Part shown: positions 28,794 to 43,716 of the stretch, one piece after another | How the letters are laid out: each line of letters opens with the position of its first letter | Numbering within the stretch: position 1 is the stretch's first letter | From: an uncultured Clostridia bacterium | GTDB lineage: Bacteria > Bacillota > Clostridia > TANB77 > CAG-508 | DNA length: 64,000 nt | Direction: 5' to 3' | NCBI GenBank assembly: GCA_944387555.1 | Contig: CALXFH010000004.1 | Coordinates: 12,483 to 76,482 of the forward strand | The notes under the pieces: model-generated | What the model saw: only the letters and a program-made list of their open reading frames with translations | Told to the model about the DNA's origin: nothing | Database searches by the model: none | Made by a program: the position numbers and the translations under genes

Positions 28794-29522
28794 TTATGAG
28801 CATAATTTAGTTTTCATACTATTTAAAACCTTTCTTTCTATTCTAGATACTTGAACTTGTGTAACACCTAGAATTTCAGCCACTTGGCTTTGTGTTTTTT
28901 CCTTAAAAAATCTAAGTAAAATAACTTTTTTATCTCTTTCATTTAAATCTTTAATTAGCTCATTTATTGCAATTTTATTGGTAAGAATTTCTGCTTCGTC
29001 TTTATCTGTAGATAATCTATCAATTAAATTAATACCTTTTTCACTTTTTGAATTACTATTTGAATTTCCTTCAATAGACTCTGGCTTTCTTGTCGCTTCC
29101 ATTGCTAAGACTATATCTTCTTTAGATACTTTTAACTCTTTTTCAATTTTTTCAATACTTATATCTTCTCCCTTTTTATAAAAATATTCCTTTTGCAATT
29201 CTCTTATTTTAATTCCTAATTCTTTAATACTTCTACTTACTTTAACCGGTCCATCATCACGAATATATCTTTTGATTTCTCCTATCATATAAGGAACAGC
29301 ATATGTCGAAAGTTTTACTTCAAAATTAGTATCAAATCTTTTTACAGCCTTTATAAATCCCATACTTGCTATTTGGTATAAATCCTCTGTTTCATAGCCT
29401 CTTCCTTGGAACCTTTTTACAATAGACCAAATAAGTCCATTATTACTATTTATCAAATTTTCTAGCTCTAATTTATCTCCTTCTTGAGCCTTTTTTATGG
29501 TTTGTCTATCATTTTCGTACAT
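28794..29522 (-). CDS. sigF: Sporulation sigma factor SigF
   Basis: 242 aa. Regions 2-4 of a sigma-70 protein with the SigF-type sequence NNGLIWSIVKRFQGRGYETEDLYQIASMGFIKAVKRFD...YAVPYMIGEIKRYIRDDGPVKVSRS. Follows spoIIAA-spoIIAB. Confidence 0.9.
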   Translation of the reverse strand: MYENDRQTIKKAQEGDKLELENLINSNNGLIWSIVKRFQGRGYETEDLYQIASMGFIKAVKRFDTNFEVKLSTYAVPYMIGEIKRYIRDDGPVKVSRSIKELGIKIRELQKEYFYKKGEDISIEKIEKELKVSKEDIVLAMEATRKPESIEGNSNSNSKSEKGINLIDRLSTDKDEAEILTNKIAINELIKDLNERDKKVILLRFFKEKTQSQVAEILGVTQVQVSRIERKVLNSMKTKLCS

Positions 29523-29538
29523 ATTCTCCTCTTTTCTT

Positions 29539-30009
29539 TTAAGAATTTGCTGTTAGCATTTTAAATTCATCCTCATCTTTGTCTTCTTTTGGTTTTATAA
29601 TTTTAGACATAGTAACTTTAGTTCCTAAGCCCACAACAGACTCAACTTCCATTTTATCCATAAAACTCTCCATAATAGTAAATCCCATACCTGACCTTTC
29701 TAAATTAGGTTTTGTTGTATACAATGGCTCTTTTGCCATCTCTACATTTTCAATACCTTTTCCTTTATCAGAAATTTCTATTATAATTTCATTTTCTGTA
29801 AGCCAGCTTGAAATTTTAACAACTCCTTGTTTTTTATCATAACCATGAATAATACTATTAGTTACTGCTTCTGATACAGCAGTTTTAATATCTGCAAGTT
29901 CTTCTATAGTAGGATCTAGTTGTGATGCAAAAGCTGCAACAGCTATCCTTGCAAAAGCCTCATTTGAAGACTTACTAATAAATTCTAATTTCATCTCATT
30001 ATTATACAT
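29539..30009 (-). CDS. spoIIAB: Anti-sigma F factor (serine kinase) SpoIIAB
   Basis: 156 aa. HATPase_c motifs ([14 protein letters not shown]; ISDKGKGIE; [11 protein letters not shown]). Confidence 0.9.
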
Positions 30010-30025
30010 ATTTCCTTCCTTTCTA

Positions 30026-30132
30026 AAAATGGGGACGTTTCCTTTTGTCCACTTTTGCGCAATCTGGGACAGTTCCTTTAATGATATGTCCCCAATTGCT
30101 CATTTTTGTGCAAAAGGAAACGTCCCCATTTT
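30026..30132. repeat. 107-bp palindromic intergenic element (22-bp perfect inverted repeat arms) between spoIIAA and spoIIAB
   Basis: Arms AAAATGGGGACGTTTCCTTTTG (30026-30047) and CAAAAGGAAACGTCCCCATTTT (30111-30132) are exact reverse complements. The 63-nt core contains further GGGAC/GTCCC words. A related copy lies at 41431-41470. Confidence 0.85.
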
Positions 30133-30136
30133 CACT

Positions 30137-30451
30137 TTAATTTAGTTCCACTGTTGGAATTAATTTTAATAATCCGCTCATATCAAATATTCTTTTTACA
30201 CTTTGAGTTAAGTTACTTACACCTAATTTTGCACCTATCATGTTTGCAAACTTATACCTTCCGATAACTAATCCTATTCCTGCGCTGTCCATGAAAGTAA
30301 CACTATCAAAATCAAATACAACTTTTTTAGGCATATATCTTTCCATTTCATAATCCGCTTTCCTCCTTATCTCTTGTACACTATGGTCGTCAATTTCAGA
30401 CGTGACTTTTAAGACCAGCAGCTTGTCCTTTTCATAAAATTTTGACTCCAT
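30137..30451 (-). CDS. spoIIAA: Anti-sigma F factor antagonist SpoIIAA (STAS domain)
   Basis: STAS sequence ...VVFDFDSVTFMDSAGIGLVIGRYK... with the phosphorylatable Ser context DSAGIG. I prefer the start MESKFYEK at 30451 (GGAAGGAGATATATATG). The ORF-track extension to 30514 overlaps the promoter. Confidence 0.85.
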   Translation of the reverse strand: MESKFYEKDKLLVLKVTSEIDDHSVQEIRRKADYEMERYMPKKVVFDFDSVTFMDSAGIGLVIGRYKFANMIGAKLGVSNLTQSVKRIFDMSGLLKLIPTVELN

Positions 30452-30534
30452 ATATCTCCTTCCTTTCCAAAAATTTACATTAATTATTATAGTACTGTTT
30501 CCAATTTTTTCCAAGAGTAAAAAATTAGAAGTTT

Positions 30535-30560
30535 TGTCGATTTCAGAGAACTTTTCGACA
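30535..30560. promoter_or_regulatory. Inverted pair of Spo0A-box-like heptamers upstream of spoIIAA
   Basis: TGTCGAT on the plus strand (30535-30541) and a perfect TGTCGAA on the minus strand (30560-30554). They form the 9-bp inverted repeat TTTTGTCGA...TCGACAAAA, 85-110 nt upstream of the spoIIAA ATG. Sigma-A-like hexamers TTGGAA-17-TATAAT lie at 30514-30486. Confidence 0.45.
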
Positions 30561-30582
30561 AAATCTTAACTTTAAAAATTCA

Positions 30583-30621
30583 CAAAAAATAGAGAGAAAG
30601 TTTTATTAAACCTTCTCTCTA
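30583..30621 (-). terminator. Rho-independent terminator after 30650-31060
   Basis: Stem TAGAGAGAA/TTCTCTCTA, followed on the minus strand by TTTTTTG. Confidence 0.6.
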
Positions 30622-41409: not shown

Positions 41410-41430
41410 GTCTCTCTCCTTTATAAGATG

Positions 41431-41470
41431 TGTCCCAGATTACGCAAAAATGCGCAAAAGGAAACGTCCC
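41431..41470. repeat. Second copy (half-element) of the GGGAC palindromic repeat family
   Basis: The reverse complement GGGACGTTTCCTTTTGCGCATTTTTGCGTAATCTGGGACA matches 30032-30071 at 36 of 40 positions. It fills the 60-nt gap between two cistrons of the cohesin operon. Confidence 0.8.
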
Positions 41471-43716
41471 TATTGTTCTATTTCTTGAAGCCCTAATATA
41501 TGTCTTTGAATTAATAGTAAATCAACAGAACTTGGTTTTGATGATGTTTTTCTTACATTACTTGCTTTCATAAATATACTATCTAACTTTTGTAACTCTA
41601 GTATATGTCTTTGTAATACTAATAAATCAACACTATTTATCTTTCCATCTCCATTACTGTCTCCATACACTATAATTGTATATTCTCTTAAAAGAATTCC
41701 ATTTTCTTTTACTAAGATTTTACTTCCAGTTCCTACAATATCATTATCTCCTAAAGTTTCACCTTTATAGTTTACAAATTCTAATTCTAAATCTGTTGTA
41801 ATTAAGTCTTTTAAATCAGATACTTTGTTTTTATCATAATTTATTCCTGAAATTTCTAAACTATCTACATTTAAAGAACTATCAAAGTGTATTTCTGAAT
41901 CTTCCATTTTTCTTACTACTGTTACTTTACATTCTTTTTTGATTTCTTCATTTTCTTTTGATTTAACTGTAATTATTGCTGTTCCTTCTTGCTTTGCTTC
42001 TAAATTTCCGTGTTCATCTAATGTTACTGTATCTTGCTTATTACTCTCAAAAATAATACCTTTTTCATTTGCATCATCTGGCTCTACATAGGCATTTATT
42101 TTAAATGTATCCCCTACTTGCATATAGACATCATCATTATCTATTAATATGTCTGTTACTTTACTATAAACTTCCACTTCTAAAGTAGCTTGTACATCAT
42201 TCTCTTCTGCTTTTACTGTTATAGTTGCTTTTCCACTTGTTATTCCTCTTAAGTTCCCATCACTATCTACTGTTACGATATTTGGATTACTAGATGAATA
42301 TATTACTTTATGGTCTTTTGCTTCTTCTGGCGAAATTTTTATATTTAATTTTTTAGTTTCTCCTTTTTGTATAACATTATTATCTAAACTCATTTCTATA
42401 TTTTCTATCTGTACTGGTGGGACTTCTGTTACATAGTTTTGTGAAATATAACCGATAATTCCATTAGAAAGTCTTACCATATCCCATCTATCACCAGTTC
42501 CGACGCCCTTTTTTATTCTTGTCATCTGGTTTCCTTCTTGCACCATTGTAATTACTTCATAAGAAGTACTAGGTCCTGTTCTTACATTTACATTAGTAGC
42601 ATTACAATATACTTTTGTATTGTCATCTGTAAAATTACTTGGCTCAATACTTGGACTTTGTGTTGGAATATCAGGCATATTATTATATATTGGAATAATA
42701 AAATTCATTGGTATATCTAACAAATTACTTTTTTTATAACCTGTATATATAGATTTTGACTCACTATAAGGAGCAAGTACATTTGTCATGTACTGGTGCC
42801 AAAATAAACTACTTCCTGTTACATCAAACTTTTGTAAATATACTGTATCTTGTCCTTGATTTATATAACTATCTCCTATAAAAATAGCTCCTCCTGTTAT
42901 TGCTCTTTCTTTAGTGTTCCATGGAATTAAAAATTTAGTTTTAGTTGCTTCACTAGCGCCTTTTCCATCTTTTGCATACTGAAGTCCATTTTTAATTGCT
43001 CCCATGGGCTCAGAAGAACTTGTTGCTCCTATATTATAAAAATTATATAAACCTTCAAAACCACTTACTGTTCCGCTAATTGAAGCATGTGATAAAAAAG
43101 GTCCTACTTCTTGTTTTATTCTAGATGCTAAATGATATGGACTTACCTTTGAAGTTTGTCCTCCTCTTAATATTAAGTCCGAATATTTTTCAGACATATT
43201 AATAGTTTGTCCTGTACTTGTTACATAAGATACCTTTGTATTATAAAATTCTGTACCATAAAGTATTTTTTCAACTCCATCTAAATTATTTGTTTGCTCA
43301 CTAAAAGATAGCCCCTCAAATTGGAATATTCTAACTTCATTTAGAAAATTTCTTGGGTCCATACAAAACTCTACTGCTTGTCTTGAACTATCCACCCAAC
43401 CTGCGTCTACTTCAACATTATATTCTCCAGGTTTTGTATTTTTCCATCTATCAGAATAGTTTTTAGGAACTAAGTTTTTACCAAATTCATTTTCATTATC
43501 AATAACGTAATTCCAATCTAAATTTGTATATAAAGCCGTAAACTTCCAATTCGGATGTTTTGTAGCTAATTCTTCTAAATACGGTTTATAACTTTCTGGA
43601 AAATCTTCTATACCATTAGATCTACCCTCTCCATTTACAACAGCAAAAATTATGCATCCTAAAAAAAGAATTATAAAAAGTACTATATATGTTTTTTTAT
43701 CTTTTAAAATGCTCAT
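41470..43716 (-). CDS. Dockerin-tagged putative peptidoglycan hydrolase (GH73-like glucosaminidase - SH3b - 2x Big_2 - dockerin)
   Basis: 748 aa. N-terminal signal/anchor. LytB/Atl-like region (HLASRIKQEVG ... GQDTVYLQKFDV ... WHQYMTNVLAPY). SH3b (VNVRTGPSTSYEVITMVQEGNQMT...WDMVRLSNGIIGYISQNYV). Two Ig-like Big_2 modules (SSSNPNIVTVDSDGNLRGITSGKATITV; ...VTLDEHGNLEAKQEGTAIITV). C-terminal dockerin YGDSNGDGKINSVDLLVLQRHIL plus a degenerate second repeat. Confidence 0.7.
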   Translation of the reverse strand: MSILKDKKTYIVLFIILFLGCIIFAVVNGEGRSNGIEDFPESYKPYLEELATKHPNWKFTALYTNLDWNYVIDNENEFGKNLVPKNYSDRWKNTKPGEYNVEVDAGWVDSSRQAVEFCMDPRNFLNEVRIFQFEGLSFSEQTNNLDGVEKILYGTEFYNTKVSYVTSTGQTINMSEKYSDLILRGGQTSKVSPYHLASRIKQEVGPFLSHASISGTVSGFEGLYNFYNIGATSSSEPMGAIKNGLQYAKDGKGASEATKTKFLIPWNTKERAITGGAIFIGDSYINQGQDTVYLQKFDVTGSSLFWHQYMTNVLAPYSESKSIYTGYKKSNLLDIPMNFIIPIYNNMPDIPTQSPSIEPSNFTDDNTKVYCNATNVNVRTGPSTSYEVITMVQEGNQMTRIKKGVGTGDRWDMVRLSNGIIGYISQNYVTEVPPVQIENIEMSLDNNVIQKGETKKLNIKISPEEAKDHKVIYSSSNPNIVTVDSDGNLRGITSGKATITVKAEENDVQATLEVEVYSKVTDILIDNDDVYMQVGDTFKINAYVEPDDANEKGIIFESNKQDTVTLDEHGNLEAKQEGTAIITVKSKENEEIKKECKVTVVRKMEDSEIHFDSSLNVDSLEISGINYDKNKVSDLKDLITTDLELEFVNYKGETLGDNDIVGTGSKILVKENGILLREYTIIVYGDSNGDGKINSVDLLVLQRHILELQKLDSIFMKASNVRKTSSKPSSVDLLLIQRHILGLQEIEQ

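Follow-up and report, generated by a model that had tools for sequence, protein, structure and literature searches.

A REPIN-like palindrome between spoIIAA and spoIIAB of an uncultured Clostridia bacterium belongs to a dispersed repeat family probably linked to a RAYT/TIRYT-type transposase

The window, that is, the whole stretch of 64,000 nucleotides analysed here (contig CALXFH010000004.1 of assembly GCA_944387555.1, from an uncultured Clostridia bacterium), carries a spoIIA operon on its minus strand. The stoichiometry of the proteins encoded by this operon decides the activation of sigma-F in the forespore. The spacer between spoIIAA and spoIIAB measures 127 nt, nearly all of which is occupied by a palindrome composed of two repeat units (U1 and U2). 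A third unit (U3) is found elsewhere, and these three are the only ones in the 64-kb window. The features are as follows:

30137..30451, minus strand: spoIIAA, anti-anti-sigma factor of 104 aa with a STAS domain (ORF; PF01740/PF13466 matched on the identical gene in L195)
29539..30009, minus strand: spoIIAB, anti-sigma kinase with a HATPase_c domain (ORF; PF13581/PF02518), its Shine-Dalgarno sequence at about 30012-30021, just 3′ of the hairpin
28794..29522, minus strand: sigF (ORF; Sigma70_r2/r4), 16 nt after spoIIAB
30026..30132, no strand assigned: REPIN-like doublet of two inverted units, cores outward and GGGAC tails inward, a geometry shared with 23 of 26 close pairs at related loci and with the units that flank the RAYT gene
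30026..30078, plus strand: unit U1 (core, 30026-30047; internal hairpin region, degenerate; tail CTGGGACAG, 30064-30072)
30080..30132, minus strand: unit U2, the 5′ unit in the mRNA sense, with its core at 30132-30111 and the tail TTGGGGACAT, complement of 30088-30097
41426..41476, minus strand: solo unit U3, ACAATAGGGACGTTTCCTTTTG-GCGCA-TTTT-TGCGT-AATCTGGGACACATCT

The spoIIAA ORF, as listed, extends to an upstream TTG. Three features precede the gene: a terminator (30621-30590), the region of which aligns poorly with a sister species (L012), and two elements that L012 has kept, namely paired Spo0A-box-like words (TGTCGAA at 30560-30554) and a site resembling a promoter (30514-30486).

The original prediction described a perfect 22-bp inverted repeat filling the spacer almost entirely, and its coordinates and sequences proved exact: AAAATGGGGACGTTTCCTTTTG at 30026-30047 faces its exact reverse complement at 30111-30132. 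In 100 dinucleotide shuffles of the window, this 22-mer found no match with up to 3 mismatches. The total of 107 nt was returned by a repeat finder as an imperfect palindrome, with arms of 53 nt that are 77% complementary and separated by 1 nt. The palindrome starts 4 nt past the spoIIAA stop codon and ends 16 nt ahead of the spoIIAB ATG, where, as had been noticed, it abuts the Shine-Dalgarno sequence AAGGAAGG. The two further related words pointed out between the arms, at 30064-30076 and 30088-30097, are genuine and correspond to the GGGAC-containing inner tails of the two units. When aligned with 31 units of the family, U1 retains four of the five hairpin pairs. A very stable RNA hairpin had also been anticipated, and the predicted fold of the spacer RNA indeed reaches -60.3 kcal/mol, compared to -25.3 ± 3.6 kcal/mol for shuffled sequences (z = -9.8, with 0/200 shuffles as good). 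The window gave no Rfam match at gathering thresholds, and scanning the element by E-value yielded only sub-threshold, generic miRNA-hairpin noise.

The arms recur at 41455-41476 in the window, within U3, and at no fewer than 114 loci of related genomes, which agrees with the proposal that the palindrome is an insertion. U3 sits between two minus-strand genes, its 5′ end including the TAG at which the upstream gene stops; in L049, variant units occupy the orthologous gap. The unit is about 50 nt long, starts with (x)ATTGGGGAC and finishes with GGGACACATCT. It consists of a variable word of 5-6 nt, a near-invariant core ATTGGGGACGTTTCCTTTTG, a 5-bp hairpin closed by a TTTT or AAAA loop, and a tail (A)TTTGGGACACATCT. 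The GTAG/CGTC tetranucleotide tag of canonical REPs is absent from the unit ends. The stem of the hairpin differs between genomes (GGACA/TGTCC, GCACA/TGTGC, GCTCC/GGAGC, GCTCG/CGAGC or GTTGG/CCGAC; GCGCA/TGCGT in the solo unit of the window) with clear covariation: over 32 units, 93% of the cells are paired and both sides have changed in four of the five pairs, which none of 500 shuffles equalled. A second type of unit has the tail module inverted (…GGTAnATCTGTCCCTTTTGGTAC).

The core 18-mer TRGGGACGTTTCCTTTTG was found at a minimum of 114 loci in a collection of species-representative genomes, chance alone being expected to give about 35 matches over the full 596 Gb by our own arithmetic. These loci are concentrated in about 50 MAGs labelled Clostridia, Clostridium, Clostridiaceae, Eubacteriales or Bacillota, which account for 111 of them; the three matches outside these taxa look like chance. 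Among the matches listed, the MAGs originate from rabbit, mouse, human and other guts, with at most 10 loci per MAG. Counting the 16-nt core with up to 2 mismatches gave 157 cores among the matches listed, 126 of them intergenic; most of the others touch the ends of ORFs, probably due to over-extension by the crude gene caller.

The arrangement of the units was examined in the same set of listed matches. Close pairs (less than 400 nt apart, n = 26) are in the (+,-) orientation in 23 cases, with the cores outward as in the doublet of the window, and in tandem (+,+) in the three others, the (-,+) orientation being absent. Solo units are oriented with or against the flanking genes equally often (33 vs 33), which favours an element acting at the DNA level and argues against a strand-specific cis-regulatory RNA as the function of the whole family. 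In 17 of 21 instances, the genes on either side of a doublet are co-directional; doublets often span the whole gap, 3-4 nt from the end of one gene and 13-28 nt from that of the other. Such gap-filling being common in the family, the position in the spoIIA operon is typical of it. The centres of the doublets range from 52 to 352 nt, and some enclose further hairpins or an additional, unrelated palindrome (L066, L081).

Other identities were considered for the core and rejected. As a sigma-54 -24/-12 site it would have the wrong spacing, and most copies read TTTTGG instead of TTGC. It does not match the Spo0A box. A SpoIIID GGACA site was discarded since the motif is dispersed in both orientations over more than 100 unrelated loci. 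A literature search by sequence string in both orientations returned unrelated primers only, and no description of the repeat was found.

Clustering of the ORFs across the 114 loci listed for the 18-mer yielded housekeeping families only, with no recurrent IS or DDE transposase. A transposase surfaced only on inspection of unit pairs 0.4-4 kb apart. In L067, a (+,-) pair of units about 1 kb apart encloses an ORF of 266 aa that matches the Pfam family Y1_Tnp (PF01797) with 57 bits, for a cut-off of 23. Its best NCBIfam model is that of the REP-associated tyrosine transposase, with 65.6 bits for a curated cut-off of 80, the IS200 transposase model scoring 21 bits. A C-terminal helix-turn-helix gave sub-threshold scores only, at residues ~228-256 (HTH_23, E-values of 0.02-0.08; HTH_28, 0.18; Sigma70_r4_2, 0.02), among them one in the homologue from L023 (HTH_3, 7e-4). 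This homologue, 46% identical, adjoins a unit, as do gene remnants in L034 and L071. Altogether, 2577 homologues of the L067 protein were retrieved at E ≤ 1e-10, one of which is named RayT by JGI. Many are on contigs of about 1 kb, as expected if the flanking repeats break assemblies.

Eight further ortholog groups, with 58-80% amino acid identity to the L067 protein, are all encoded between a small ORF and radA, followed by disA wherever the locus reaches that far. Units flank the transposase gene in inverted orientation, cores outward, in 9/9 related genomes (L067 and the eight ortholog groups). The flanking core varies with the protein: GGGGACGTTTCC, GGGGACGTTTCCATTTG or GGGGACGTTTCTGTTTG accompany the closer ones, GGGGACAGGTCC those of L204 and L210, and GGGGACAGTCCCC that of L206. 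A single syntenic Y1 transposase with its own dispersed flanking repeat, diverging together, is the signature of REP-RAYT systems, and the co-variation of the inverted units with the transposase points to a non-autonomous element of the REPIN/TIRtron type. Neither the RAYT gene nor radA was found within the 64-kb window, and the exact unit variant of the window was never among the units flanking the eight homologues looked up.

To our knowledge, REPIN-RAYT systems have been characterised almost entirely in Proteobacteria. In Pseudomonas and Enterobacteria, REP doublets are moved by a REP-associated tyrosine transposase encoded in single copy (Bertels & Rainey 2011, PMC3116915; Bertels et al. 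2017, PMC5581495). The Clostridia family resembles these systems in its short extragenic repeats, present alone or as inverted doublets of fixed geometry, and in the persistence of copies at orthologous sites across species. In related genomes it also has a Y1/HUH gene with inverted copies of the unit on both sides; the chromosomal position of this gene is conserved, and the units diverge along with it. It differs by its host, an uncultured, AT-rich, Gram-positive gut bacterium, by units that lack GTAG and have GGGGAC words around a covarying 5-bp hairpin, and by a longer transposase (~260 aa) with a C-terminal extension that scores below the NCBIfam RAYT cut-off.

Another parallel is offered by the TIRYT genes, which are RAYT-like and flanked by terminal inverted repeats sharing the motif GGGGWSAS, some of which belong to repeat families of moderate abundance in dimeric arrangement (Di Nocera et al. 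2013, PMC3733652). TIRYT corresponds to subclass 2.1 of TnpA-REP, described as long proteins with a C-terminal helix-turn-helix (Bac_DnaA_C, HTH_23 or HTH_28) and no REP-like sequences nearby (Quentin et al. 2018, PMC6006769). It is probably equivalent to the Group 1 RAYTs, which are "also found in the Clostridia", only Groups 2 and 3 being clearly linked to abundant 16-mers (PMC5581495). Like TIRtrons, the Clostridia system combines a RAYT-like Y1 gene with terminal inverted repeats that contain GGGGWSAS-type words, here GGGGACAG or GGGGACAC in the flanking units of L204, L206, L210 and L043. The flanking repeats likewise can form moderately abundant families as dimers or clusters, and the protein is long, with the possible, sub-threshold C-terminal helix-turn-helix. 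Unlike in TIRtrons, the main and most conserved core word, GGGGACGT, departs from GGGGWSAS at one position, the seventh, and unlike in subclass 2.1, units are near the gene in 9/9 genomes. No description of the radA-adjacent synteny or of the Clostridia repeat family was found in the TIRtron and TnpA-REP literature compared. The family is thus filed as a Clostridia REP-type repeat that is previously undescribed in the literature found and that belongs to the known REPIN/TIRtron kind.

The distribution of the element at the spoIIAA-spoIIAB junction was then compared between genomes. A protein identical to SpoIIAB is present in 45 collection blocks; SpoIIAB was read in 23 contigs and the spacer compared in four, where the 127 nt are identical in 4/4 same-species contigs. 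The sister species L012 (86% identical in DNA, 90% in SpoIIAA and 94% in SpoIIAB) has the element at the same position, with six substitutions and a 3-nt deletion in the flanking T-run. The element is absent from L132 (SpoIIAB 93% identical), where the spacer is about 37 nt, and from L193 and L120-L128 (SpoIIAA 80-83%, SpoIIAB 82-86%), which have the 32-nt spacer AAAATTAATTGGTAAGAAAGGAATTAAAAAAT. The spacers of relatives therefore provide the empty sites expected of an insertion, and conservation across distant relatives, the alternative set beside the original prediction, was not observed. Presence in two sister species and absence from the next relatives are most simply read as a gain of the palindrome in the lineage from which the window species and its sister both descend.

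Among relatives with SpoIIAB at least 70% identical, 51 distinct spoIIAA-spoIIAB spacers range from -8 to 323 nt (median 66), 29 of them being 60 nt or longer and 14 folding at -15 kcal/mol or better; the spoIIAB-sigF spacers are at most 38 nt in 22 of 24 cases. Many close relatives have a plain spoIIAA-spoIIAB spacer of 11-36 nt. Others have REP-type palindromes made of other unit variants (L144, with a GGGACAGGTCC core, L184 and L080) or, depending on the lineage, AT-rich hairpins, GC-rich repeats or a conserved pseudoknot-like motif. Either the junction is simply permissive, or an RNA structure is useful there.

The pseudoknot-like motif, GGTTTATAGGTAAAACC-AyAAAAA-CCTAAAT, does not occur in the window. 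It is located 10-20 nt upstream of the spoIIAB ribosome-binding site in 15 relatives or more. The hairpin loop UAGGU can pair with a downstream ACCUA past the A-rich linker, and this second helix is 96.7% paired with two compensatory pairs. The motif, which has no Rfam match, also precedes the gene of a GerAB-like permease (L018), sigF (L138) and, in L078, a small membrane ORF that follows a GerAC-like gene.

Between the window and L012, the element is identical at 98 of 104 sites (94%, in this single species pair), against 74% for the third codon positions of the four flanking genes and 76% for two other spacers. With a neutral identity taken as 0.75, the binomial P for this conservation is about 3e-7. 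Identity of 94% against some 75% makes a purely passive passenger insufficient as an explanation. Of the orthologous unit pairs in other species pairs, six of seven are at most 1 percentage point above the conservation of their flanks; the seventh (L037/L085), another doublet, is 3 points above (0.96 vs 0.93).

As to the nature of the palindrome, it is most probably a non-autonomous element of the REPIN or TIR-repeat type, comprising two inverted units of about 50 nt, linked to a RAYT/TIRYT-type Y1 transposase and gained before the two species diverged. The kind of element is ordinary, its location unusual. The original wording, a MITE/REP-like insertion, holds for its REP/REPIN part, owing to the tie with the RAYT/TIRYT transposase, and not for a MITE in the classical sense, which would be a deletion derivative of a DDE-transposase IS, mobilised through its terminal inverted repeats and generating target-site duplications. 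The terminal inverted repeats, small size, many copies and intergenic location would all suit a classical MITE, but neither the window copy nor 22 other doublets inspected showed direct repeats on their flanks. Moreover, the sole coding element found between inverted units is the Y1/HUH transposase and not one of the DDE type, the clustering of neighbouring ORFs gave no recurrent IS transposase, and solo units and tandem sub-repeats are common, as for REPs; such an origin is very unlikely. The Correia elements of Neisseria and the BOX and RUP elements of pneumococci are also small, abundant, intergenic and modular palindromic repeats, which can alter the expression of their neighbours, and we know of none that is linked to a Y1 transposase. 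Correia and RUP duplicate their target sites and go with IS elements of the DDE type, unlike the Clostridia family, with its Y1 link and no target duplication seen. That the palindrome is instead an ancestral regulatory RNA structure or small RNA gene proper to the spoIIA locus, and not a repeat, has even less to commend it and can hardly be credited. The hairpin is very stable and conserved in the sister species, but over 100 unrelated loci carry the same units, in either orientation, and the alignments exclude that these copies are unrelated. The structure is also missing from relatives with 93% identity in SpoIIAB, and it matches no Rfam family beyond the sub-threshold miRNA hairpins.

A mobile REPIN origin is compatible with a present role, and the palindrome may conceivably be kept by selection as a cis-acting hairpin of the spoIIA mRNA that sets the SpoIIAA:SpoIIAB(:sigma-F) ratio, a reading that is less likely than not. 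It would operate by shielding the spoIIAA segment from 3′-exonucleases, by partial termination, or by modulating translation termination and re-initiation at the junction. The excess of conservation of the element over third codon positions and other spacers speaks for it, and so does the contrast with orthologous units elsewhere, which, but for the one doublet, hardly exceed their flanks; nevertheless, the former figure comes from one species pair and 104 sites, and repair or conversion can also homogenise a palindrome. Within the clade, the spoIIAA-spoIIAB spacer shows unusual plasticity, more than a quarter of the distinct versions being well folded (14/51) while the spoIIAB-sigF spacers are mostly short, and related REP-type palindromes have settled at the same junction in L144, L184 and L080. 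Conservation and this repeated occupancy lend a measure of indirect support to the consequences that the original prediction suggested as possible: an attenuator, a site of RNA processing or stabilisation, or a shifted SpoIIAA:SpoIIAB ratio. Against this, the plain spacers of many close relatives indicate that a hairpin is not required for the operon. In the mRNA of the window, the 3′ arm of the stem (…GUCCCC) is followed by AUUUUUAG, in favour of termination; in L012, the stem is followed only by CCCCAUUAG (AUUAG), so that the terminator-like U-run is not conserved, and the terminator scan made no call at the palindrome. The wider proposal that the REPIN has been domesticated for intercistronic control of spoIIA, the junction being a regulatory hub of the clade that repeatedly recruits RNA structures to set the ratio triggering sigma-F, appears unlikely. 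Among the recruits would be REPINs in three or more unit variants, hairpins rich in AT and the pseudoknot-like motif that also precedes germination-receptor genes.

For the REPIN-like element itself, the following course can be proposed. By analogy with published RAYT (TnpA-REP) biochemistry, a RAYT-type transposase would recognise the conserved words and the small hairpin of the unit on single-stranded DNA, and would copy doublets in trans to new intergenic sites without target duplication. One doublet would have landed between spoIIAA and spoIIAB before the window species and its sister separated, and would now be fixed there. Co-transcribed with the operon, the element is predicted to form a hairpin of about 50 bp, the base of which, judging from its geometry, would bring the spoIIAA stop codon beside the spoIIAB ribosome-binding site. 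This proximity could preserve coupled expression, which would explain why the operon tolerates the insertion.

Local effects can be envisaged from the palindromes of E. coli operons. The malE-malF REP in E. coli is an mRNA stabiliser, and the spoIIAA segment of the mRNA may similarly be shielded from 3′ exonucleases. Partial transcription termination at the spacer hairpin is another candidate effect. [quoted passage not shown] As with the REP/BIME elements of E. coli operons, the palindrome is co-transcribed between cistrons, a few nucleotides past a stop codon, and can form a stable hairpin; unlike there, where effects were measured, those considered here are predicted from the sequence, and the RNA decay machinery of Firmicutes is different. 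An effect on SpoIIAA:SpoIIAB expression may be inferred as possible, and as the candidate effects push the ratio in opposite ways, no sign is predicted.

An abundant repeat family of gut Clostridia is thus tied to a radA-adjacent RAYT/TIRYT gene in 9/9 genomes, for a class of transposases in which earlier surveys found few or no repeats. These repeats probably fragment metagenome assemblies. If the element does alter the ratio of SpoIIAA to SpoIIAB, it would illustrate concretely how a selfish palindrome can rewire a developmental switch.

The spacers of the spoIIA operon were compared between loci L115-L194 from related genomes and the window (spoIIAA-spoIIAB at 30010-30136, spoIIAB-sigF at 29523-29538). 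Within the clade the spoIIAA-spoIIAB spacer varies greatly: it has 51 distinct versions ranging from -8 to 323 nt (median 66), with several unrelated inserts that form hairpins. Short spacers are the rule between spoIIAB and sigF, where 22 of the 24 distinct versions measure 38 nt or less. In L187, L190 and L194, the spoIIAA-spoIIAB spacer is AT-rich except for GC-rich repeat-like inserts (for example …GACGCGTAGGCGTAGCAACGCGGAGCGG…), which belong to a different element family.

Fifteen spacers (L117, L133, L134, L137, L138, L140, L148-L150, L152, L162, L179 and L181-L183) contain a conserved pseudoknot-like motif of about 32 nt, GGTTTATAGGTAAAACC-AyAAAAA-CCTAAAT, located 10-20 nt 5' of the spoIIAB ribosome-binding site. 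Pairing in its second helix reaches 96.7%, and two of the pairs are compensatory. The motif has no Rfam entry and is absent from the window. It is also encountered ahead of a GerAB-like permease gene (L018 ~3043, minus strand), of a small membrane ORF following a GerAC-like gene (L078 4154), and of sigF (L138 3496).

The region upstream of spoIIAA was surveyed on the minus strand (window 30486-30621) and displays the following features:

30621-30590, minus strand: terminator-like hairpin followed by a T-run
30560-30554, minus strand: Spo0A-box-like word TGTCGAA
30535-30541: second Spo0A-box-like word, an inverted near-copy of TGTCGAA
30514-30486, minus strand: promoter-like site TTGGAA-17-TATAAT

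Both Spo0A-box-like words and the promoter-like site are kept in the sister species (L012), where the terminator region aligns poorly.

A solo repeat unit lies between two co-directional genes:

41426-41476, minus strand: solo repeat unit

The upstream gene (748 aa) takes its TAG stop codon from the 5' end of this unit (AATAGGGAC), and the unit stops 16 nt short of the start codon that follows. In a relative sharing 71% DNA identity, the orthologous gap (L049 6130-6290) contains units whose core differs (GGGGACGGTTCC).

The surroundings of the transposase gene were examined in L067, the source of the reference protein, and in all eight ortholog groups that were looked up. A 99-128-residue ORF without Pfam match is always found on one side and radA on the other, followed by disA wherever the locus extends far enough. 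In all of them a conserved palindrome, AAAAAGTATAGCA-N(10-17)-TGCTATACTTTTT, separates the upstream repeat unit from the gene start (L067 4233-4332; L199-L210, 5' of the transposase gene); it could serve as an operator or as a terminator. Many homologues of the transposase are known solely from contigs of ~0.9-1.3 kb, which suggests that short-read metagenome assemblies routinely fragment here at the flanking repeats.

A second palindromic element (…GAAAAAAGCGCATTGAAAGTGATTGA…TTAGAAATTCT…), unrelated to the repeat units, is nested centrally in two doublets of different unit types from different species (L066 7230-7380; L081 5620-5790). Tandem arrays occur at L052 ~740-800, L078 6341-6440 and L002 3774-3860, consisting of sub-modules, such as GGGGTATCTGTCCCTTTT repeated three times, or of entire units head to tail. 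These arrays show that the repeat family is modular in build, like BIME and BOX elements.
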